Shown piece by piece: positions 6,820 through 30,110 of a stretch of DNA of 32,000 nucleotides. Numbering within the stretch: the stretch's first letter is position 1; every line of letters starts with the position of its first letter. The notes beneath the pieces are model-generated. The model had not been told where the DNA came from, did no database searches, and saw only the letters and a program-made list of their open reading frames with translations. Made by a program: the position numbers and the translations under genes. Source of the DNA: Pseudoalteromonas tetraodonis (GTDB lineage: Bacteria; Pseudomonadota; Gammaproteobacteria; Enterobacterales; Alteromonadaceae); the NCBI RefSeq assembly GCF_002310835.1, contig NZ_CP011042.1:697258-729257 (forward strand), read 5' to 3'.

Positions 6820-7287
6820 ATGAAGAATTATAAAGTTCTATTGTGTATTGGTTGTTTGTTTTTTGCTAATCAGTCTTTTGCTAAAACGATTTTACCTAGT
6901 AACAAAACTAAGTTTGTTAGCTTGTTTAATAGTAAAGTTGGCGATTATGAATTAATTTCAGGCGATGCTCGCTATTGTGATTCAGGTTCATTAATGTGGC
7001 TCGATAGAAATAATACCGATTTGGGTTTTAGACTTGGTAGTTTAATTTCTTTTATTGATTTACATAATGGAACACAAACTAATAAAGTCCCTGATTTTTG
7101 CCTAGTGACTACTAAGTTTAAATATACGAATATTGGTTTAACAATGGATTTGCGCCAAGACAGGTGTGACAATAATAGCGATACATTAGATGTTAGCCGC
7201 ACGCTAAATTTTGTTTCTGACACACAGTTAGAATATTCGATTAAAAATGCTAATGTTCAATGTAAGTTTGAATTAAAGCGTCTATAA
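6820..7287 (+). CDS. Hypothetical secreted protein (155 aa, Cys-containing)
   Basis: N-terminal signal peptide MKNYKVLLCIGCLFFANQSFA/K. No family recognised. The 3' end overlaps the umuC stop by 6 nt (convergent genes). Confidence 0.5.
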   Translation: MKNYKVLLCIGCLFFANQSFAKTILPSNKTKFVSLFNSKVGDYELISGDARYCDSGSLMWLDRNNTDLGFRLGSLISFIDLHNGTQTNKVPDFCLVTTKFKYTNIGLTMDLRQDRCDNNSDTLDVSRTLNFVSDTQLEYSIKNANVQCKFELKRL

Positions 7288-8544
7288 ATCGCATTTTATT
7301 TTTGGAATATCACGCCAACGAGTCGTGTATTGCGGCGATAAAAAAGCCCTGTTCATATGCCAATGATCATTTAATTGGCTGCTCGCCACGCTAAGCATTC
7401 CTTTACCGTATCTATGATTTATCGCATCTAAGCAGCCCATTAACTGCGGGTTATCGGTTTGCTTATCAAATAAATGATGTTGTTGAAACTGCTGCGGGCT
7501 GAGCTCTAATGCGCCCACACCACATTTATAAAATCGAATTCCCGGTTGATATATTTGCTCAAAACTCTTTGATACCGCATTGGCCATAACGCGAGTATCG
7601 TTAGTGGGCGGATCAAATTGATACATAACTGACTTTTTATAAAAGGCGTGTTCATGTGATGAGCTGGCAGCAAAAATATAAATACGATGAGTGAGCGACT
7701 GTTGTGCTCTTAATTTTTGTGCAACTACACTAGCATGATTTATTAGGGCGGTTTTAACTGCATCGGGGTCGCAAAGTCGCTGACCAAAACTACGAGTTGA
7801 AAAAATAGCTTGTTTATCTTGGCGTACATCATCCCAGTTTAAACAGGTAATGCCGTTGAGCTCGTTAATTGTGCGCTCAAGCACCACACTAAATTGGCGA
7901 CGAATAGTTTTTGGGCTTTGCTCAGCCAGTTGCCACGCGGTATGAATGTCCATGAGAGCCAGCTTTTTAGCTAAACGTTTGCCCACCCCCCAAACATCTT
8001 GGCAGTGCATTCGTTGTAAAATAGTGCGGCGACTTACTTCATCGTCAATCACTGCAACACCATTAAAGCCAGTTAGTTTTTTAGCTGCATGGTTAGCGGC
8101 TTTGGCTAAGGTCGGTGTTGGCCCAAAGCCAACCCCAACAGGGAGTTTGGTTTCGCGCCATACAGTACGCCTAATTAGTTGCCCATATGCTTGCCAATCG
8201 TTAATTAAAGGTTGATAACCATTAAAGTGTAAAAACGATTCATCGATACTGTAAACATGCTGGGTGTCACAAAAGCGGCCAATTACACTCATCATCCGGT
8301 CGCTTAAATTAGCGTATAGTTCATAGTTACTAGAGCGTACAACCACATTGTTTTGTTCTAGTAACTGCTTAACTTTAAAGTAAGGGCCAAATTTAGGAAT
8401 ATTAAGCTTACGCGCAATTGGGCAGACCGCACACACACAACCGTCGTTATTGGTAAGCACCACCACAGGCTTTGAGCGAATAGCCGGATCAAATACTTTT
8501 TCTGCACTGGCATAAAAAGCAACGGCATCGACTAAGGCATACAT
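7282..8544 (-). CDS. umuC: DNA polymerase V catalytic subunit UmuC (Y-family polymerase)
   Basis: N-terminus MYALVDAVAFYASAEKVFDP resembles E. coli UmuC MFALCDVNAFYASCETVFRP. 420 aa. Overlaps the umuD 3' end by 13 nt. Confidence 0.93.
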   Translation of the reverse strand: MYALVDAVAFYASAEKVFDPAIRSKPVVVLTNNDGCVCAVCPIARKLNIPKFGPYFKVKQLLEQNNVVVRSSNYELYANLSDRMMSVIGRFCDTQHVYSIDESFLHFNGYQPLINDWQAYGQLIRRTVWRETKLPVGVGFGPTPTLAKAANHAAKKLTGFNGVAVIDDEVSRRTILQRMHCQDVWGVGKRLAKKLALMDIHTAWQLAEQSPKTIRRQFSVVLERTINELNGITCLNWDDVRQDKQAIFSTRSFGQRLCDPDAVKTALINHASVVAQKLRAQQSLTHRIYIFAASSSHEHAFYKKSVMYQFDPPTNDTRVMANAVSKSFEQIYQPGIRFYKCGVGALELSPQQFQQHHLFDKQTDNPQLMGCLDAINHRYGKGMLSVASSQLNDHWHMNRAFLSPQYTTRWRDIPKIKCDL

Positions 8545-8945
8545 GAAAGTAACTCAGGGCTTTGTCGATGCAGCCTAATAGAGCGAGTTACCACGCCTTC
8601 AAGCTGAAACTCATCTGATTCAGTCAATTGCACCGGCTTATAAGCAGAAGAGGCTGATAGCAAGCGTGCATTGGTCTTATCAAGCAGCTTACATACAAAT
8701 AAACCATTTAAGTTAGCCACAATAACATCGCCATCTTTTGGTATTTCTGCACGGTCAACCAACAGTAAGTCGCCCTCAAAAATACCAATTTCTTGCATAG
8801 AGCACCCAGATGCTATCCCAATAAACGTGGCATCAGGGTGCTTTATTAATAACTCATCAAGTGAAACGCCAAGCTCTGTATATTGTGCTGCAGGTGACTC
8901 AAATCCGCATACACCGGCCTCTATATAAATGGGAATAACAAACAT
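8532..8945 (-). CDS. umuD: UmuD, LexA-like S24 self-cleaving peptidase subunit of Pol V
   Basis: GVC/GFESPAAQY matches the E. coli UmuD cleavage region VQC/GFPSPAADY. Catalytic Ser in ASGCSM and Lys in FVCKLL. AGGT lies 7 nt upstream of ATG 8945. Confidence 0.9.
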   Translation of the reverse strand: MFVIPIYIEAGVCGFESPAAQYTELGVSLDELLIKHPDATFIGIASGCSMQEIGIFEGDLLLVDRAEIPKDGDVIVANLNGLFVCKLLDKTNARLLSASSAYKPVQLTESDEFQLEGVVTRSIRLHRQSPELLSCMP

Positions 8946-10439: not shown

Positions 10440-11432
10440 TTGTTATCAACTATTCCTTTTTCGTTATTAGAACTGGCGCCTATGCCTAAAGGCGCCACTG
10501 TGAGTGACACCTTAAATAAAAGTACAGCCTATGCACAAAAAGCTGATGAGCTCGGTTTTAACCGTTTTTGGTTAGCCGAGCATCATAATATGCCTGGGAT
10601 TGTTTGTGCGGCTACTTCAATTTTGGTGGGGCACATAGCCGGTAACACTAAAAAAATACGCGTAGGGTCGGGTGGAATTATGTTACCTAATCATGCTCCT
10701 TTAGTTGTTGCTGAGCAATTTGGCACCTTAGAAAGTTTATACCCAGGTCGAATTGATTTAGGGTTAGGGCGCGCTCCAGGTAGCGATCCTGTGACAAGTC
10801 GTGCATTAAATAACGATATCAGTCGTGCTGAAAACTTTCCTAATGAAGTGAGCGAGTTACAAACATTATTGGGCCCTTATGAGGGAACTAAGCGCGTGCG
10901 AGCAATACCTGGTGAAAACACCAATGTTCCCATTTGGCTTTTAGGTTCAAGTTTATTTAGTGCGCAGTTAGCTGCACAAAAAGGATTACCCTATGTATTT
11001 GCGGGGCACTTTGCACCGCGTTTTGTGCATGATGCAGTAGCCTTGTATAAACGAGAATTTAAACCATCAAATGTATTAGCTAAGCCTTATGTCATGTTGG
11101 CATTACCTTTAGTGGCTGCAGATACAGATGAAGAAGCACAGTACTTATCAACTACATCCAAACAGCGAGTGTTATCGTTAATTAGAGGCGACGAGTTGTG
11201 GTTAAAACCCCCAGTAGAAACAATGGAAGGTTTGTGGAGCGAACAAGAGCGCGCTCATGTTGAGAGCTTTTTAGGGTTAAGTGTTACCGGTGGGCCAGCC
11301 AGTATTAAACACAAGCTAGAAATGATTGTAAATCAATTAGGGGTTGATGAGCTTATATTCACCAACGACTTATTTGATAATGAAAAGCGCCATAAAGCGC
11401 TTGAAATTTTAATGCAAATAAAACATGGATAA
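10440..11432 (+). CDS. LLM-class (luciferase-like) flavin-dependent oxidoreductase, YhbW-like
   Basis: GGAGG at 10428-10432 lies 7 nt before TTG 10440. FSLLELAP...WLAEHHNMPGI...GSGGIMLPNHAPLVVAEQFGTLESLYPGRIDLGLGRAPGSD matches my recollection of E. coli YhbW closely. Confidence 0.85.
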   Translation: MLSTIPFSLLELAPMPKGATVSDTLNKSTAYAQKADELGFNRFWLAEHHNMPGIVCAATSILVGHIAGNTKKIRVGSGGIMLPNHAPLVVAEQFGTLESLYPGRIDLGLGRAPGSDPVTSRALNNDISRAENFPNEVSELQTLLGPYEGTKRVRAIPGENTNVPIWLLGSSLFSAQLAAQKGLPYVFAGHFAPRFVHDAVALYKREFKPSNVLAKPYVMLALPLVAADTDEEAQYLSTTSKQRVLSLIRGDELWLKPPVETMEGLWSEQERAHVESFLGLSVTGGPASIKHKLEMIVNQLGVDELIFTNDLFDNEKRHKALEILMQIKHG

Positions 11433-12983: not shown

Positions 12984-14390
12984 ATGTTCGACACGCTGAT
13001 CAAAAGTGTAAATAGCCTTTTATGGGGCGAAGGCCAAGTACTCATTTACATTTTACTTTTTGCTGGCATATGGTTTTCTGTGCGTTTAAAAGCTATTCAA
13101 CTCGTTAAATTTACACATATGTTTAGCTTGCTAAAAGGCAGTAGCAAGTGTGATAAAAATAACATTAGCTCCTTTCAGGCTCTATGTACGGGGCTTTGTG
13201 CGCGTGTTGGTACTGGTAATTTAGCCGGTGTGGCTGTTGCTATATCACTTGGTGGAAGTGGCGCCATATTTTGGATGTGGGTGATTGCCATACTGGGTAT
13301 GGCGACCGGTTTTGCAGAAAGTATTCTTGGGCAAATTTATAAAATTCGTGATAGTAATGGCGATTTTAGAGGTGGCCCTGCGTATTATATTCAACAAGGC
13401 TTAGGCAGCCGTGCGTTTGCTATTGTGTTTGCCGCCTGTTTATTTTTAGGTTACGGCTTTACCTTTAGCGCCATGCAAACCAACACCATTACCGATGCGC
13501 TTAATTATGCCTTTGAAATTCCCACACACTATTCCGGCATCGTGATCACTTTGTTAGCCGGTTCAATTATTTTAGGTGGATTTAAAGCTATTGCCCGTTT
13601 TGCTGAGCGAGTAGTCCCTGTTATGGGCATCGTGTTTGTGCTTGTTGCTGTGGTAATTACACTGATTAACTTTACCCAAGTACCCAGTATGCTAAAAGAT
13701 ATATTTTTATCCGCGTTTGGCTTACAAGAAGCGGGAGCAGGCGCAATGGGGGCGGCGATTAAAAATGGTATTCAACGGGGCTTATATTCAAACGAAGCAG
13801 GCGCAGGTAGTGTGCCGCATGCATCGGCAAGTGCCAGCCCTATACCTAATCACCCAGTTACCCAAGGTTACATACAAATGCTAGGCGTGTTTTTCGACAC
13901 TATTGTACTTTGTAGCTGTACCGCGGTTATTATTTTATTGGCCGATGTGAACATAAGCGGCGAAATGGAAGGCATTCGTTTAACCCAAACCGCTATGACC
14001 TCACATTTAGCACAAGGTGGCGTGTATTTTGTAGCCGCTGCCATTACTTTATTTGCTTTTACCTCGGTGGTTGCTAACTACGCCTACGCTGAAAGTAACC
14101 TGCACCTATTTAAGCTTGATAACAAAGTAGGGCGCGGTATTTATACTTTGCTTTATTTATCAATGATGTTGTGGGGCGCATCAGCCACCTTAAAACAAGT
14201 ATGGGATTTAGCCGATATTGCCCTAGGGTTAATGACAGTGGTGAACGTAATCGCTATTATACTGTTAACGCCAACTATTTTGTCTGTTACTAACGACTAC
14301 CACGCACAAAGAGACAAAGGCATAGAGCCTGAATTTAAGGTAAAAAACGTAAAAGTGCAGGGCAAATGTGAAGACGGAATTTGGGATTAA
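12984..14390 (+). CDS. Alanine/glycine:cation symporter (AGCS family; sodium:alanine symporter)
   Basis: AAGGAAG lies upstream of ATG 12984. 468 aa polytopic membrane protein with AGCS-type motifs (GTGNLAGVA, GGPAYY, RGLYSNEAGAGS). Confidence 0.9.
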   Translation: MFDTLIKSVNSLLWGEGQVLIYILLFAGIWFSVRLKAIQLVKFTHMFSLLKGSSKCDKNNISSFQALCTGLCARVGTGNLAGVAVAISLGGSGAIFWMWVIAILGMATGFAESILGQIYKIRDSNGDFRGGPAYYIQQGLGSRAFAIVFAACLFLGYGFTFSAMQTNTITDALNYAFEIPTHYSGIVITLLAGSIILGGFKAIARFAERVVPVMGIVFVLVAVVITLINFTQVPSMLKDIFLSAFGLQEAGAGAMGAAIKNGIQRGLYSNEAGAGSVPHASASASPIPNHPVTQGYIQMLGVFFDTIVLCSCTAVIILLADVNISGEMEGIRLTQTAMTSHLAQGGVYFVAAAITLFAFTSVVANYAYAESNLHLFKLDNKVGRGIYTLLYLSMMLWGASATLKQVWDLADIALGLMTVVNVIAIILLTPTILSVTNDYHAQRDKGIEPEFKVKNVKVQGKCEDGIWD

Positions 14391-14484: not shown

Positions 14485-15528
14485 ATGATCGACATTTTTG
14501 CAGGTAAAACTGCAGCAAAAATAATAAACGAACAAGGGTTTAAACCTGAGCTTTTTACCTCGTTTTTAGGGGCAAGTGGTGGCCCTAAATGGTTTACCTT
14601 ATTTGGCTTAGACAAATATATATTTGGCGAATTTTTTAAACATCGCATCCAACCGCTTAATTTAATTGGCTCATCGGCAGGGGCTTTTCGTTCTGCGTGT
14701 TTTGCACAAAACGATCCAGTTAAAGCCATTGAACGTTTAGCAAAATCGTATTCGCAAACCCGATATTCTAGTAATAAACCCACCCCAACTGAGATTACCA
14801 CTAAAGCCCGCGCATTACTTGAAGATGTATTTGGTGATGATGGCGTTACTGAAATTATAAATAATCCGGTATTTAAAGCGCATTTTATTGTCGCAAAATC
14901 TAACGGGTTTATTGCCAGTGAGAATAAATTAATACAGCTTTTGGGTTTATCAAAAAGTTATATGCTTAACCGCGTTAATCGAAAATTATTAGGCTCGCAA
15001 TATGAGCGTTTTATTTTTGGCGCGCCCAATAGTGATTTAAGTATTACCGACAGCTACAATTTTAAAACTCAAAATATCGCACTCACACAAACAAATTTAA
15101 AAGATGCCTTATTGGCATCGGGCTCTATACCACTAGTAATGCAAGGCATAAAAAATATTGCCGGTTCCCCACCAGGAATTTACCGCGATGGCGGCATTAT
15201 TGATTACCACTTTGATTTAAAAATTAATAACCCAGGCTTAATTTTGTATCCGCATTTTAATTCAGAACCAAAAGCAGGGTGGTTCGATAAAAATTTAAAA
15301 CGAAAAGTGTCACCACAAAATTATGATAACGTTGTGATGATCACCCCATCAAAAGAATTTGTCGCGGGTTTACCTTACGGGAAAATCCCAGATAGAAACG
15401 ACTTTACTGATCTTGATGCAGACACGCGGATTAAATATTGGAACACCGTGTTTAGTGAAACTGAGAAACTGGCCGAAACATTTGATAATAATTTAGAAAA
15501 TGAAAGCTTTGATTTAAAAATTTTTTAA
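14485..15528 (+). CDS. Divergent patatin-like phospholipase family protein
   Basis: GASGGPKW (Gly-rich oxyanion motif), GSSAGA (GxSxG) and YRDGGIIDY (DGG catalytic Asp). No clear SD. ATG 14485 is the first start after an in-frame TAG. Confidence 0.72.
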   Translation: MIDIFAGKTAAKIINEQGFKPELFTSFLGASGGPKWFTLFGLDKYIFGEFFKHRIQPLNLIGSSAGAFRSACFAQNDPVKAIERLAKSYSQTRYSSNKPTPTEITTKARALLEDVFGDDGVTEIINNPVFKAHFIVAKSNGFIASENKLIQLLGLSKSYMLNRVNRKLLGSQYERFIFGAPNSDLSITDSYNFKTQNIALTQTNLKDALLASGSIPLVMQGIKNIAGSPPGIYRDGGIIDYHFDLKINNPGLILYPHFNSEPKAGWFDKNLKRKVSPQNYDNVVMITPSKEFVAGLPYGKIPDRNDFTDLDADTRIKYWNTVFSETEKLAETFDNNLENESFDLKIF

Positions 15529-15537
15529 TTATTACTT

Positions 15538-15565
15538 ACTATACATAAATTACGGTATGCAGTAT
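15538..15565 (+). other. Degenerate dif-like site (pseudo-dif; candidate attL of a Xer-exploiting cassette)
   Basis: ACTATACATAA|ATTACG|GTATGCAGTAT. It shares CATAA and an identical 6-bp central region with the site at 17126-17153. Its XerD-arm equivalent matches TTATGTTAAAT at only 6/11. Located 10 nt after the patatin stop codon. Confidence 0.5.
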
Positions 15566-15600
15566 AAATAAAAGGGCGTAAGCCTTTTTTTATTAGATAT

Positions 15601-16674
15601 TTATAGATTCTGCCTGAGTGACAGTTTGTCGTCTGATAAAAAATTCATAATATTTTTAAAATGATAGTGAAGCATGGCTAAAAAAATCTTATTATCTTTA
15701 GTAGAAAAATAATTTAAAAGATTTGCTGTTATTTGAAACATACACAGAGTAAGACCTTCTATTGGGACTTTAGCACCTAAAGAACTTCTTCCTACACAAA
15801 GTTGATCATAAGAAGAACCATTCGTTGCAAGGTTCAAAATTAAACTTTGAGAGCTAGCATGAATATTTTGACTAGCAATTTTAGAGTAAGGTGCATAATG
15901 ATCTAAAGACAAAGTCTTTTCTATATCTGCAAAGGTTATTTTACCATTCTTATTACTTGGCTCTACAAAGCCATCCAACCAGCCATAATCAAATCTGTAT
16001 TTTTTACCATATGTAGTTAATAAATAATTATAAAGTTCTTCTGTTTGTTTGGCTTGGTCGTCATCGACGACTAAGTCTTTATACTTTTCTGGATAATTAT
16101 CTTTGGCTTGCTTAGATTTATTTAGATTATTAAACTTATCAACAATATGATGATGATAAAACTTTTCAGCGCATTCAGGGCCATATGTAAAAATGCTTAT
16201 AAAAATAACCAATATATCATACAGGCTTCTCCATCTTGATAAAGCAGCATCAGGATAGCCATTTTTTATTAAGCATAGTATTTCATTTGATGCTAAAGAT
16301 GCTCTAGCATGAAGTTTAATTAGAACATCAAACATTACATCATTTGTTTCAGATGCACTCAACCTGAACTCTTCATTAATTTCTGAACCCACAAAAACAG
16401 AAAATGAAATGAAGCGCTCAAGCTTTTCAATTAAAGTACCCCATTGTTTATTATGGGATTTAAAAAAAATGTCGTCCGATTCTGTGTTAAATTTCAGGAT
16501 AGAATCATCTATAAAATAAAATGATAGTTTAGGTAGAATGCTATCAACGGACTCTTGAACATAAGTCCGAAAATCAGCTTCAGTATATTCTTGGTAAGTA
16601 TTTTTCCCATTTTTTGATTCGTATTCATACAAATCATAAAGAGCCTGAGTAAGAATATCTTTTATGTCTTTCAT
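15601..16674 (-). CDS. Orphan AT-rich gene; helical protein resembling the DUF5677 family (function unknown)
   Basis: The track start at 16746 is a TTG. ATG 16674 (MKDIKDIL...) has AGGGAA 6 nt upstream, giving 357 aa. The segment LIKLHARASLASNEILCLIKNGYPDAALSRWRSLYDILV resembles my recollection of the DUF5677 core. Hand-counted GC of three 60-nt lines (15601-15780) is 22-35%. Confidence 0.65.
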   Translation of the reverse strand: MKDIKDILTQALYDLYEYESKNGKNTYQEYTEADFRTYVQESVDSILPKLSFYFIDDSILKFNTESDDIFFKSHNKQWGTLIEKLERFISFSVFVGSEINEEFRLSASETNDVMFDVLIKLHARASLASNEILCLIKNGYPDAALSRWRSLYDILVIFISIFTYGPECAEKFYHHHIVDKFNNLNKSKQAKDNYPEKYKDLVVDDDQAKQTEELYNYLLTTYGKKYRFDYGWLDGFVEPSNKNGKITFADIEKTLSLDHYAPYSKIASQNIHASSQSLILNLATNGSSYDQLCVGRSSLGAKVPIEGLTLCMFQITANLLNYFSTKDNKIFLAMLHYHFKNIMNFLSDDKLSLRQNL

Positions 16675-17057
16675 GAATTTCCCTGTAATTATTTGATTAC
16701 TGTTTTTTGCTAGAACACCTACAATATCTAGTAATTGACTTTGCAAATCAAATAAATATTGGTCTTAAGTCTTAATTTGCTCCATAAGTTTTTTGTACAT
16801 GGTTTCATATTTTTTGCTGACCAGTTTATATCACTTAACTAATGTACCGCAGATGATTTACTTTTCCTCAATGTTTAGACATAGTGTTGTCTTAATAGGG
16901 AGTTCTATACCTGGGCATGGGCAAGTTAGGGAAAGGAGACGTAATTAATAATGAAAATATACGTTAATAACATTAAATAATAGAGAGTTTATTAAGTAAT
17001 AAAAAGAAAATAATAATAAGTATTTTACCTTTGAAATTATAAGCGTTAAATTATTTT

Positions 17058-17126
17058 AGCTGATAGCTGATAGCTGATAGCTGATAGCTGATAGCTGATA
17101 GCTGATAGCTGATAGCTGATAGCTGA
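17058..17126. repeat. Perfect tandem heptad array (AGCTGAT) x ~9.9
   Basis: agctgat is repeated without interruption from 17058 to 17126 (69 nt). It ends exactly where the XerC-arm equivalent of the dif-like site begins. Confidence 0.97.
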
Positions 17127-17153
17127 AAACCCATAAATTACGTTATGTTAAAT
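17126..17153 (+). other. dif: Candidate XerCD dimer-resolution site (dif) of this replicon
   Basis: AAAACCCATAA|ATTACG|TTATGTTAAAT. The XerD arm is 11/11 identical to the E. coli and V. cholerae dif XerD arm. The inner XerC arm CATAA sits at the correct 6-bp spacing. The outer XerC arm is non-consensus. Confidence 0.65.
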
Positions 17154-17169
17154 TAAGCAATTTAAATTA

Positions 17170-17201
17170 AAGTGGGCGTAATCCATAAAACTAGCCCACT
17201 T
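17170..17201 (-). terminator. Hairpin downstream of the SYLF lipoprotein gene
   Basis: aagtgggc (17170-17177) pairs with gcccactt (17194-17201), with a 16-nt loop. AT/T-rich sequence follows on the minus strand. Confidence 0.45.
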
Positions 17202-17220
17202 ATGATAGGGTTTTGATAGC

Positions 17221-17784
17221 TTAGTTTAGCTCAGAATCGACCCAAAATTTAGTACCTTTTAAAACAGCTTGCAGTGCAAGGCCACTTTCGGTTAAAGAGT
17301 AAACAGTAACTTGGTCAGCAATAGCTTCGGCAACTAAAGCGCCACCTTTATCTTGGTATTTTGCAGCAGCATCGGCATTACCACCGAACGCCCAACCATG
17401 TTTAATAAATCTATTTAACGCAGCTTGATCGTGAAAAACCATCACAATATTGAAATCTTTAACACCTAAACCTAAGCCTAAACCAGCTTCACCCATATTC
17501 ATATAGGTAGATTTTCCGGTTAGGTTATTTTTTACTACACCGTACCCACCACCAAAACTGGCTAAAATAACGTTTACATTGGCATTATCAAATACAGCAT
17601 AACCGGCAGAGTTTGCAATTTGAGTTTTAACATCTGGTTTTTTTTCGTATAGAGCAGTTAATGTATTCGATTTCATACTTTGTACTAAAGCACGTTTTTC
17701 TCCAGGGGAAGCACTGCCTGTAGTAGCGCAACCTGTTAATAAAACGCTAATAACTAACATGCTCAACAGAAGTAATTTTTTCAT
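17221..17784 (-). CDS. Lipoprotein with SYLF (Ysc84/DUF500) lipid-binding domain
   Basis: The track start at 17841 is a TTG. ATG 17784 has AAGGA upstream and gives MKKLLLLSMLVISVLLTG/C (lipobox). The Gly-rich GGGYGVV...GLGLGLGV segment is typical of bacterial SYLF proteins. Confidence 0.8.
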   Translation of the reverse strand: MKKLLLLSMLVISVLLTGCATTGSASPGEKRALVQSMKSNTLTALYEKKPDVKTQIANSAGYAVFDNANVNVILASFGGGYGVVKNNLTGKSTYMNMGEAGLGLGLGVKDFNIVMVFHDQAALNRFIKHGWAFGGNADAAAKYQDKGGALVAEAIADQVTVYSLTESGLALQAVLKGTKFWVDSELN

Positions 17785-17923: not shown

Positions 17924-19135
17924 ATGCTTGTTGCTCTGGTCGATACATTAAAACAATTACGTTATCAAATAGCTCATCTTGAAGATAATACACTCTCATC
18001 AGAATATCCAGAACTAGCCTCTTTTATACAGCAAGTCAGCTTGACTGTAACTGAATCAAAGGCTGATCTTAATTTTTTATACCAGTTTTTATATGTTTAT
18101 GGACGAAAATCTGAGGCAACCTATAGTCGTTTTCGTAATGAGTTGGAACGTTTTTATTTATGGTCATGGCTTATAGCTGAAAAATCTGTATTTGAACTTA
18201 AGCGTGAAGATATTGAAGCCTATGTTGATTTTATGGTTGAACCGGATAAAAAATGGGCATCTAAATCTGTTCAATGGCGTTATAAAGATGAGCAAGGAAT
18301 TCGTCGGTTAAATCAAAATTGGCGCCCTTTCATGTTAAAAGAATCTATTGCGAGTCAGCAAACATTATCGGCCATGTTTACTGCCCTCAATGTATTTTAT
18401 AAATTCGCTATTTTAGAAGAAAAAACCTTTGCTAACTTTGTACCTGTTGTTAAAAAAAATAGTCCCTACTTGGTTGTGCAATCGCAAATACAAATCCCCG
18501 ATACATTAAGTGATATTCAATGGGAATATGTATTTGGCGTTACCAGAGATATATGCGAAAAAAAACCAGAGTATGAAAGAAACTTATTTACCCTCGCCTG
18601 TTTAAAAGGACTCTATCTTCGTATTTCAGAATTATCAGAGCGACCACAATGGTCACCTGTTATGTCTCATTTTTGGCAAGATAATGATGGCTTTTGGTTT
18701 TTACGAATAATGGGCAAAGGAAATAAATTACGCGATGTAACATTAAGTGATGATTTTCTTGAGTATTTAAAACGTTATCGCTTGTATCGAGGCTTGCCTG
18801 CTCTGCCCCGCGTTGATGAGTCAGACCCTCTAGTTCATAAAATTCGTGGTCAGGGTGGAATGACCGTAAGACAAATTCGCAGATTGGTACAACAAAGTTT
18901 CGATATTGCGCAACAATCTTTACTTGATGATGGATTTAAAGATGACGCGGAACAATTAGAAGCGGCCACTGCGCATTGGCTACGCCATACGGGGGCAACG
19001 CATGACGCGCAAACTCGCCCTTTAAAACATTTATCTGAAGATTTAGGCCATGCAAAAATTGCTACAACCGATCAAATTTATATTCAAACAAATATAAAAG
19101 AGCGGGCTAAATCTGGAATTAAAAGGAAAATTTAA
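17924..19135 (+). CDS. Tyrosine-type site-specific recombinase / integrase (403 aa)
   Basis: C-terminal catalytic signature: LRISEL (Arg), HWLRHTGATH (HxxR), LGHAKIATT (His) and DQIYIQ (Tyr). Long N-terminal SAM-like/core-binding region. No tRNA gene nearby. Confidence 0.85.
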   Translation: MLVALVDTLKQLRYQIAHLEDNTLSSEYPELASFIQQVSLTVTESKADLNFLYQFLYVYGRKSEATYSRFRNELERFYLWSWLIAEKSVFELKREDIEAYVDFMVEPDKKWASKSVQWRYKDEQGIRRLNQNWRPFMLKESIASQQTLSAMFTALNVFYKFAILEEKTFANFVPVVKKNSPYLVVQSQIQIPDTLSDIQWEYVFGVTRDICEKKPEYERNLFTLACLKGLYLRISELSERPQWSPVMSHFWQDNDGFWFLRIMGKGNKLRDVTLSDDFLEYLKRYRLYRGLPALPRVDESDPLVHKIRGQGGMTVRQIRRLVQQSFDIAQQSLLDDGFKDDAEQLEAATAHWLRHTGATHDAQTRPLKHLSEDLGHAKIATTDQIYIQTNIKERAKSGIKRKI

Positions 19136-20334
19136 TGGAATACTTAGTGATCTCATTTATTGGCGTTTTATTTTTAGTTTATTCCTTAACATTTCGCCAA
19201 CTAGAAAAAACCGAAGTAACGGGGCCAATGTTTTTTGTAATTGGTGGGATATTGCTTGCCACACTTTTACCTAACGAAAGTAGCAGAATAAAAACCGGCA
19301 TAGATTTTTTACTGCCCTTTATAGAATTGACACTCAGTATTTTTTTATTTTCTGATGCGGCTAAGTCAAAATTAAGTGTTTTAAGACATAGCTTTCAGTA
19401 TCCAAGTTTACTGTTATTTATCGCCCTCCCCTTAACGTTATTACTTGGGATTGCCGTTGGGTTATTTTTGTTTGCCGATTTATCTGTTATTCAAGCGGCG
19501 TTACTTGCAATAATATTAACGCCTACCGATGCGGCGTTGAGTAAAGGGTTATTGGCAAGTACGCAGGTACCTGAAAAAATTCGTGAAGGAATTAATACCG
19601 AAAGTGGTTTGAATGATGGTTTATGTGTTCCTATTTTTTTAATATTTATATTACTGGCAAAAAATCCTGAATCTGCAATCACAGCAACGCAAACGTTAAG
19701 TGTGTTTGGCAGAGAACTTGGTTTAGCCTTATTAATTGCCTTTACAAGTACCGCTATTTTTATTCCGTGTTTAAATTTTGCAATGAAGCGCCATTACTTT
19801 GCGCAAAACACGAGTCCTTTTTTATTATTAGGTTTTGCTATGGCGGTGTTTTCGATTACGCAATATTTTCATGGCAGTGGATTTATTGCGGTGTTTGTTG
19901 CGGGTTTATTATTTGATAAATACGCCACTACTAAAATAAGCAAAGAGTTGATAGAAGACTCAGAGCATATTGCTGACTTTACTTCTTTAATGATCTGGTG
20001 TTTGTTTGGATTTGTATGTGCTTATTTAGTTTTACCTAAATTAAATTTAGCGATAATAACGTATGCATTATTAAGTACGACTTTAATTAGAATAATACCG
20101 GTTATGCTGTCATTGCAATTTACAGCACTAACAATTAAAGAGCGTTTTACATTTGCTTGGTTTGGGCCAAGAGGATTGGCCTCAATTGTTTTTACCTTAA
20201 TGGTAATAGACACACAAATAGAAAACAAATTTCAAATTGCGACCATTGCCATGACAACAATTTTATTTAGTGTGTTTATTCACGGTATTAGTACAAAACC
20301 TATAGCAGATAGTTTTGCTAAAAAAACTAAATAA
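19135..20334 (+). CDS. Cation:proton antiporter (CPA1, Na+/H+ exchanger family)
   Basis: 399 aa with about 11-12 predicted TM helices. Motifs ILTPTDAA and ESGLNDG are typical of NhaP/CPA1. The start ATG overlaps the integrase stop (TAATG, 19133-19137). Confidence 0.85.
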   Translation: MEYLVISFIGVLFLVYSLTFRQLEKTEVTGPMFFVIGGILLATLLPNESSRIKTGIDFLLPFIELTLSIFLFSDAAKSKLSVLRHSFQYPSLLLFIALPLTLLLGIAVGLFLFADLSVIQAALLAIILTPTDAALSKGLLASTQVPEKIREGINTESGLNDGLCVPIFLIFILLAKNPESAITATQTLSVFGRELGLALLIAFTSTAIFIPCLNFAMKRHYFAQNTSPFLLLGFAMAVFSITQYFHGSGFIAVFVAGLLFDKYATTKISKELIEDSEHIADFTSLMIWCLFGFVCAYLVLPKLNLAIITYALLSTTLIRIIPVMLSLQFTALTIKERFTFAWFGPRGLASIVFTLMVIDTQIENKFQIATIAMTTILFSVFIHGISTKPIADSFAKKTK

Positions 20335-29234: not shown

Positions 29235-30110
29235 ATGGTTACAAAGGTACAAATAAGAAGTCAGTTTGATTTACTCAATGAATTAACACTTAGCTTAATT
29301 GATGAGCTTAAAGGGGTTGGCTTTGCTAAAGCAGAGTATTTTCAATTACCTGAGATTAGTAGTACTGAAGAAAATATAATTCCTGAGTCTATAAGCGTTT
29401 CAAAAATAACAGGGGAATTGGCACATAAGGCAATTTTAAATGCTTTCTCAGATATGTATAAAAAGCCAGGGCTAAGCAGCCGAGTATTAAAGCGACACCC
29501 TGGTTTGCTAGTAATAAAAGAGGCGAATAAACAAGCCATTATTGATCGCATAGCACAGGTAAATAGTGCAAAAGCAGCTTTTAAAAATTGTATTTTAGCA
29601 ATAGATAATAACGACGCGCGATTTGAAGCGGTGCATAATGCAATGCCAAATTTAATAACGCTTGCGGCGTATCGTAAAATTCATAGTGAAATTGAATCCC
29701 CTTTTTCTGTTCGCTTTACTTGGATGCATAAACACGCAACCAAAACACTTACAAAAAAAATGGCGCTTGAAATGTTAGAAAAATCGGCAGGCTATAAAAA
29801 CCCGCGAATGATTGATCAGCAAAAATGGCAGTCACTGGTTGCACAAGAACAGGTTCGAGTAGCCAGTTTGGGTGAAAAAGAAAAATTGCGAATTAGGCGC
29901 CCTACTCGAGTTAGTCCTCAAGTTAATGTGAGGTACACTGCACAAAATCGCTATCATGTTAGTGCTGCTTTACCTTTTATACTAATTAACCCACAGCCCG
30001 ACGTAAAATTTGGCGAACTACCGAGTTACCAAAAACCCTTATCGCATCCCCGAAAACGCGAATATGATTTTCTAGTGGACCGATTATATTTAGAACAAGT
30101 AACTAAATAA
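29235..30110 (+). CDS. tus: DNA replication terminus site-binding protein Tus
   Basis: [30 protein letters not shown] resembles E. coli Tus [47 protein letters not shown] resembles LKIKRPVKVQPIARVWY. 291 aa versus 309 aa. Confidence 0.88.
   Translation: [291 protein letters not shown]

Follow-up and report, generated by a model that had tools for sequence, protein, structure and literature searches.

The present analysis concerns a small cassette in a 32,000-nt stretch of Pseudoalteromonas tetraodonis DNA (contig NZ_CP011042.1, positions 697,258 to 729,257), the whole of which is hereafter called the window. The cassette is bounded by two directly repeated 28-bp sites resembling dif, the dimer-resolution site of a replicon, and carries one intact gene together with a pseudogene fragment, a non-coding spacer and a tandem heptad array. 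It lies between a gene for a patatin-like phospholipase and a gene for a YSC84-related lipoprotein (Table 1; surveyed loci are cited by L numbers). An earlier note, made from the letters of this DNA, had described it as a candidate minimal integrative mobile element exploiting Xer recombination (IMEX), and both sites were located with the sequences given there.

Table 1 Features of the dif2 region of the window.
Feature	Position	Strand	Remarks
umuDC operon	7282-8945	-	
Left flank, patatin-like phospholipase gene	14485-15528	+	Converges on the site
Left hybrid site (attL type)	15538-15565	+	ACTATACATAA XerC-side arm; ATTACG as in dif2; degenerate XerD-side arm GTATGCAGTAT
attP-proximal module	15566-15600	-	Terminator-like hairpin AAAAGGGCGTAAGCCTTTTT (~15570-15591) closing the cargo gene; weakened copy
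Intact cargo gene, DUF5677 (PHROG 27456)	15601-16674	-	357 aa; Pfam E = 8.7e-24; PHROG E = 1.1e-45
Pseudogene fragment of the conserved inovirus 138-aa helix-turn-helix gene (PHROG 23834)	16696-16842	-	tblastn 49% identity, E ~1e-8 to 1e-9
Non-coding spacer	16843-17056	.	16988-17056 matches (88%) the L020 cassette, whose cargo is unrelated
Heptad array	17057-17126	+	TAGCTGA x10, 100% identical (Tandem Repeats Finder); abuts the XerC-side arm of dif2
Right site, dif2 (attR type)	17126-17153	+	AAAACCCATAA XerC-side arm; ATTACG central region; TTATGTTAAAT canonical XerD arm
Right flank, YSC84-related lipoprotein gene	17221-17784	-	Converges on dif2; 100% conserved in many strains with differing occupants
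Divergent tyrosine recombinase gene	17924-19135	+	403 aa; 0.8 kb right of dif2
dif-like sequence within the recombinase gene	18716-18743	+	AAAGGAAATAA|ATTACG|CGATGTAACAT; ~1,590 bp right of dif2
Cation:proton antiporter gene	19135-20334		
Tus terminus-binding protein gene	29235-30110	+	NCBIfam E = 4e-95

A repeat search recovered the 16-mers at 15544-15559 and 17132-17147 as a direct repeat (15 of 16 positions identical, 1588 bp from start to start), and the pattern CATAAATTACGNTATG, with up to two mismatches allowed, occurred three times in the window against a mean of 0.14 in shuffled sequence, none of 100 shuffles reaching three. The 1,588-bp spacing and the 15/16 repeat reported earlier are therefore beyond chance, and both flanking sites fit the pattern without mismatch. 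The left XerD-side arm, previously called crippled, does agree with TTATGTTAAAT at only 6 of 11 positions, and derives from the attP of the inserted element. The same pattern, ATTACG followed by GTAYGYAR, also bounds full prophages of inoviruses (filamentous phages) and other mini-cassettes in relatives.

The interior of the cassette (15566-17125) has a GC content of 30.1%, compared with 37.4% for the window, and is its lowest 1,560-bp stretch, which bears out the low GC described before; the hand counts behind that description were exact (26.7%, 21.7% and 35.0% for the three 60-nt lines at 15601-15780, and 50% for the line at 13201). The terminator-like hairpin of the earlier description is present, but the window copy is weak (-5.5 kcal/mol, z = -1.1). 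A stronger hairpin, AAAAGGGCGAAAGCCCTTTT, of which the window copy is a degenerate form, is conserved at this place in relatives and lies directly 3' of the XerD'-like arm in phage attP, in attL sites and in other cassettes; a simple terminator scan did not flag this conserved hairpin. The heptad array, likewise as described, recurs with about 6 to 15 units in L022, L020 (a 99%-related strain), L007 and L100, its copy number varying between strains. Several unrelated cassettes also have tandem arrays, of differing units, at or near the XerC-side end of dif2, for example CTGACAA in L089 and five copies of the 11-mer AATTGAAATTA in L028. A BLAST search of the spacer region (16830-17060) against every fetched locus matched no phage region, and an Rfam search of 15400-17300 gave nothing above noise. 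A single cassette open reading frame (ORF) exceeded 60 aa; the content amounts to the DUF5677 gene and the pseudogene fragment, with no recombinase gene, and neither xerC nor xerD was located in the window. With its location at dif, its directly repeated hybrid sites and the lack of a recombinase of its own, the cassette has the attributes of an integrated IMEX.

The window aligns with second chromosomes of Pseudoalteromonas (chromids, entered as plasmids in PLSDB) at 78–85% identity. The Tus gene and a peak of cumulative GC skew at 15–20 kb of the window confirm a replication-terminus setting; a umuDC operon is also present. Xie et al. 2021 (PMC7858055) placed the dif2 of Pseudoalteromonas chromids at distances from ori2 and tus that range from a few kb to 27 kb, reported prophages and sequences resembling dif2 in its vicinity, and suggested that IMEXs are involved. 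The core CCCATAAATTACGTTATGTTAAAT was conserved just 3' of the YSC84 gene in all the chromids examined as well as in 35 metagenome contigs, and this fixed position identifies the right site as the replicon's dif, in line with the earlier note; it is predicted to be the functional dif2 of the chromid (chromosome II). The outer XerC arm of dif2 varies from strain to strain, following the occupant. The right XerD arm is identical to the XerD arm of Escherichia coli dif, as had been claimed. The combination CATAA-N6-TTATGTTAAAT occurs once in the 32 kb, at 17132, and the window contains no better dif. A further dif-like sequence inside the neighbouring recombinase gene is kept in all relatives, at a distance from dif2 curiously close to the cassette length; it is probably a chance match held by coding constraint.

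Homology to phage is concentrated at the left end and in the gene content of the cassette. Window positions 15544-16882 align at 76% nucleotide identity with the attL-proximal end of a P. lipolytica inovirus prophage, the homology ending exactly at the left site and reaching 200 bp upstream of the cargo gene. The cargo protein had been taken for an orphan, which is not strictly the case given its DUF5677 match (Table 1), and its closest non-identical relative, at 75% amino acid identity, is encoded by the last gene of this prophage. The ratio of nonsynonymous to synonymous substitution rates (dN/dS) between the cargo gene and its phage-borne homologue is 0.17, which indicates purifying selection, and an identical protein is encoded by 16 metagenome or isolate contigs from several samples. 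The pseudogene fragment covers residues 89-137 of a 138-aa inovirus protein and is interrupted by two in-frame stops, the first ~88 residues, including the helix-turn-helix (HTH), being absent. The full gene sits between Zot and the cargo gene in the prophages of L003, L005, L017, L023 and L051, and sister cassettes hold fragments of it cut at differing points. Together, the match to a prophage end and the truncated, stop-broken phage gene show that the cassette is inovirus-derived rather than the novel self-contained minimal IMEX first proposed. An inovirus prophage would be expected to carry genes for a replication initiator, coat proteins and Zot/pI; the window cassette has none, and no similarity to Rep or Zot was found within 12 kb to the left of dif2 in the window, so that it is classed as a derivative and not as a prophage. 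Among 50,697 phage records, a nucleotide search with the cassette returned only a 28-nt chance match, and a search of deposited phages with the full prophage gave only weak matches to Vibrio and Shewanella inoviruses.

The cargo protein belongs to a family with more than 2,300 representatives at E <= 0.001, in which the invariant residues include R147, R149, W232 and H272. Its AlphaFold2 (AF2) model is all-alpha (predicted local distance difference test (pLDDT) 88.7, predicted template modelling score (pTM) 0.82), with no significant match to PDB entries by sequence or by fold, and the protein had no match in PADLOC or NCBIfam. The sole literature lead is an enrichment near defence-associated recombinases, no defence phenotype being among those reported (PMC12632615). 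The AF2 model of the 138-aa protein combines an XRE-type HTH with a beta-hairpin and a long helix; Foldseek searches with this model gave no significant match, and a PDB sequence search found no more than XRE-type HTH proteins. A conserved TGPWA...TPWG motif in this protein is similar to the DUF3653 motif reported from PSB15 and XafT, and a tblastn search against phages gave one weak match, at the terminus of a Vibrio DJR phage (E = 4e-5). As judged from these sequence features, a role as an XafT-like factor is possible, and we treat it as a lead, not as a finding.

Four natural comparisons among relatives provided before-and-after evidence of insertion at dif2. P. donghaensis has an empty single site, ATATCCCATAA|ATTACG|TTATGTTAAAT, whereas P. 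lipolytica, with a near-identical left flank, continues as ATATCCCATAA|ATTACG|GTACGTAACAA followed by the terminator, a DUF5677 gene, a 137-aa gene and Zot, the two loci parting exactly where the central region meets the XerD arm. L027 and L023 have a 1.27-kb cassette in common (99% identity), to which L023 adds an 8-kb inovirus prophage exactly at dif2. L025 is an empty site, and its left flank leads into a phage in the viral contig L075 and, in strain HL-AS2, into a 958-bp cassette. L021 and L029, finally, have 1.6 kb of left flank at 98.3% identity and differ by a 1,059-bp single-gene cassette. Uninterrupted phage attP sites in IMG/VR contigs consist of the 3' end of a DUF3693 repressor-like gene, ATAGCCCATAA|ATTACG|GTATGTAAGAA and the terminator. 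The integrated-IMEX architecture recognised in the window is thus supported by empty and occupied sites that differ at the expected boundary, and the arrangement, far from being the same in all relatives, varies between them and includes a homologous copy of the cassette elsewhere. No recombinase gene or integrase domain was found in the surveyed prophages and cassettes. In two P. lipolytica contigs (L018 and L019), from independent assemblies, the sequence breaks exactly inside the left site, ending in ...CGTAATTTATGGG; these breaks may reflect a branch between integrated and replicative (or tandem) forms, in which case the prophage may be active.

A related inovirus occupies the chromosome I dif of Pseudoalteromonas sp. 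PB2-1 (L119, 3521-3548 and ~11210-11240), where the right site reads ATAGCCTATAA|TTTATA|TTATGTTAAAT and the left site ...CCTATAA|TTTATA|TTACATAGATA, followed by the same terminator module. No recombinase gene was found within 10 kb of it, which argues for host XerCD acting in trans. From their site sequences, phage lineages appear to be matched to the central region of either dif1 or dif2.

The survey of dif2 comprised 56 loci; a scan of genome contigs with the YSC84 protein gave three Pseudoalteromonas loci among the matches listed. Four of the 56 loci held full prophages of 8.0–8.7 kb, and at least 13 held single-gene mini-cassettes of 478–1752 bp, bounded by a half-attP and terminator module that is all they have in common. 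Turnover at the site is rapid: five strains, with right flanks 98–99% identical to each other, have five different occupants, and strains with right flanks 97.9–99.0% identical to that of the window differ in what they carry (a 153-aa cassette, nothing at all, a GGDEF segment plus a 216-aa cassette, or a different DUF5677 cassette). Among 35 metagenomic dif2 sites there are at least 25 different left flanks. The cassettes of L026 and L029 align end to end and contain the same truncated stump in different left contexts, and L021 lacks precisely this unit, which shows that site-specific recombination has added or removed at least one complete mini-cassette. The window cassette had been thought far smaller than other IMEXs, but cassettes of 478–582 bp occur at dif2, the smallest being those of the metagenome contigs L087 and L102, with 478–480 bp between sites. 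Each of the latter two contains a single short ORF (identified by eye and untranslated) and no stump of the 138-aa gene. In strain HL-AS1 (L002 ~8370-8398), a remnant of the DUF3693 3' end, gaggacgcatttgcgtta, lies next to dif2 and adjoins a 182-aa ORF and an IS30 insertion that truncates the patatin gene; this locus is a case of independent prophage decay at dif2.

We therefore consider it likely that the window cassette is what decay has left of a filamentous phage once integrated at dif2 by Xer recombination, and that it is now a locked relic. As comparison with relatives shows, the parental phage carries an attP with an XerC arm, the ATTACG central region of dif2 and a degenerate XerD-side arm (GTAYGTAR) directly followed by a terminator. 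Crossing-over at the central region places the phage between two sites, of which the left is a defective hybrid of host XerC arm and phage pseudo-XerD arm, and the right a regenerated functional dif2 composed of the phage XerC arm and the host XerD arm. Host XerC and XerD would catalyse the reaction, presumably by a TLC-phi-like route in which XerD acts first, and the 138-aa HTH protein of the phage may assist integration. Loss of ~6.5 kb, before or after integration, would have removed the replication, coat, Zot and regulatory genes, leaving attL, the terminator, the DUF5677 gene with its own upstream region, the stump of the 138-aa gene, ~0.2 kb of spacer and the heptad array. As its left site is defective in the XerD arm and it encodes no phage factor, the relic is essentially locked in place; the cargo gene would have been retained by selection as a host gene, and dif2 would stay open to the next incoming element. 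Degraded dif-integrating CTX-I inoviruses of Vibrio that keep only hypervariable-region cargo have been described (PMC12715192, 2025).

Several observations weigh against this interpretation. The dependence on XerC and XerD is deduced from the canonical XerD arm and the 11-6-11 layout, and the XafT-like identity of the 138-aa protein is unproven, the Pfam DUF3653 match reaching only E = 0.086 and appearing in 2 of 20 homologues. No full phage was found that carries the heptad array and the TATAAGCGTTAAATTATTTT module beside the XerC arm, all full phages having a DUF3693 gene at that position, so that the rightmost 0.3 kb of the cassette is not traced to any phage; of 14 viral contigs with at least four AGCTGAT heptads, none has a dif-like site beside the array. 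The right-end module (TATAAGCGTTAAATTATTTT plus AGCTGAT heptads) is common to the cassettes of the window, L020 and L022, whose cargo genes are unrelated, and such sharing is not easily explained by independent random deletions. In addition, the exact presence or absence of the L021/L029 unit and its second context in L026 imply that mini-cassettes are not always inert.

These last points are also those that speak for an active minimal IMEX or satellite, a reading we regard as unlikely. The element would be able to excise as a 1,588-bp circle with attP AAAACCCATAA|ATTACG|GTATGCAGTAT and would reintegrate at dif2 by means of host XerCD and factors supplied in trans by a helper inovirus (an Xer activator, and possibly Rep and packaging functions). 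It would account for mini-cassettes with conserved ends around unrelated cargo, for the exact presence or absence of the 1,059-bp sister cassette, with the same truncated unit in L026, and for the five occupants found beside nearly identical right flanks (98–99%). Furthermore, XafT provided in trans can complement the integration of TLC-phi (PMC6744903). A dead gene stump is, however, unexpected in a streamlined element, the non-coding part has no similarity to any fetched phage origin or intergenic region, and the phage collection gave no match beyond the chance one mentioned above. Moreover, all 16 contigs with identical cargo, and all contigs with an identical patatin gene that extend past its stop codon, have the junction of the window; patatin and cargo genes identical to those of the window are also present in assembly GCA_007991235.1. 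Neither the predicted circle junction AAAACCCATAAATTACGGTATGCAGTAT nor the predicted empty site ACTATACATAAATTACGTTATGTTAAAT was found in the metagenomes of the Joint Genome Institute (JGI), where a degenerate pattern was used that spans these two junctions and the left and right ones; all its matches were right-type dif2 sites from other strains. Empty single-dif2 sites, which the earlier note had suggested looking for, exist in relatives, but none was found for the window cassette, nor was its circle. Evidence of mobility is confined to sister elements (L021/L029, L027/L023 and L050/L017). A relic is favoured because of the dead stump, the differing truncations in sister cassettes and the lack of a second context, circle or empty site for the cassette in question.

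The neighbouring 403-aa tyrosine recombinase could in principle act at dif2 in place of XerC and XerD, as a dedicated chromid system comparable to XerS/difSL or XerH/difH. Its gene is next to dif2 in every chromid examined and the protein is a divergent Xer-like enzyme (XerC model, E = 7.6e-18; XerD model, E = 4.6e-14; each match falls far short of the family cut-off). The E. coli-like XerD arm and classical 11-6-11 layout of dif2, the presence of inoviruses with the same attL/terminator layout at the chromosome I dif, with no recombinase gene within 10 kb, and the status of the 403-aa gene as a core gene that does not vary with the occupant all make this very improbable; the protein may be a leftover plasmid-type multimer resolvase or may have some role at dif2. 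The stop codon of its gene overlaps the start of the antiporter gene by 1 nt. Least credible of all is that the left site arose by chance or local duplication and that the gene arrived by homologous recombination in a hypervariable terminus, without site-specific recombination. In its favour are the AT-richness of the region and the left XerC-side arm, ACTATACATAA, which deviates from the CCCATAA core of other sites. Against it, chance would give 0.14 sites per window, the site and terminator module lie at element boundaries in more than 15 loci, and where an empty locus is paired with an occupied one, the two part exactly where the XerD arm adjoins the central region. The paired loci, the phage attP and the recurring boundary module effectively refute it. 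At a broader level, and with a low probability, dif2 could be an integron-like single-site platform at which inoviruses deposit single cargo genes equipped with a promoter, a terminator and half an attP, these being gained, lost, stacked and perhaps recaptured by Xer recombination with phage factors in trans. If so, dif-flanked accessory genes, some of only ~0.5 kb, would form a mobile pool, the window cassette would still be exchangeable, and the heptad array would be a functional accessory sequence.

Taken alone, the cassette is of modest importance, as a phage relic that gave its host one gene. More generally, the chromid dif is a well-defined and easily scanned hotspot of phage-delivered accessory genes, the relatives provide natural before-and-after pairs for TLC-type Xer integration outside Vibrio, and the results bear on the proposal that dif2 insertions reshaped the replication mode of the chromid (PMC7858055).

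The cassette is probably the relic of a TLC-like IMEX and hence represents a known kind of element at a site of fast turnover. With a central region identical to that of dif2, a degenerate XerD arm and no recombinase gene, the elements inserted at dif2 correspond to the TLC-phi type in the definition of IMEXs by Midonet et al. (2014, 2019; PMC6744903). Like TLC-phi of Vibrio cholerae, the lineage has an attP with a proper XerC arm, a dif-identical central region and a degenerate XerD arm, its integrated copy lies between a defective hybrid site and a regenerated dif, it has no recombinase of its own, and a gene for a small HTH protein is attL-proximal, between Zot and the cargo. It differs in that the parent is a full Pseudoalteromonas inovirus targeting the dif2 of a chromid, and in that the candidate activator of 138 aa is not demonstrably a DUF3653/XafT protein, its gene and the replication functions having been lost in the window. 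The degraded CTX-I elements of Vibrio (PMC12715192) have likewise lost phage genes and kept variable cargo at the lysogeny/attP end, and also form tandem IMEX arrays at dif. Here, in contrast, the genus and the replicon are different, the cargo lies between the HTH gene and attP and not between zot and xafT, and there is a large series of single-gene cassettes (0.48–1.75 kb) at dif2. The f327-group phages (PMC4817708) and the dif2 prophages (PMC7858055) come from the same host genus, but neither of these studies defines attP, attL or attR or describes empty sites or single-gene relic cassettes.

Outside the filamentous phages, the gonococcal genetic island (difA/difB) is also stabilised by two directly repeated dif sites, one good and one with a defective arm, but is ~57 kb in size, encodes a type IV secretion system and is not derived from a phage. 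Acinetobacter pdif modules and integron cassettes are similar in being small, often single-gene units with short recombination sites and many alternative cargos per platform. Both were rejected as explanations, the former because the sites are direct repeats at a chromid terminus and not inverted on a plasmid as in pdif modules, the latter on site orientation and content, integron cassettes using attC and IntI. In contrast to both, the window cassette has direct repeats at the replicon's own dif and phage gene debris inside.

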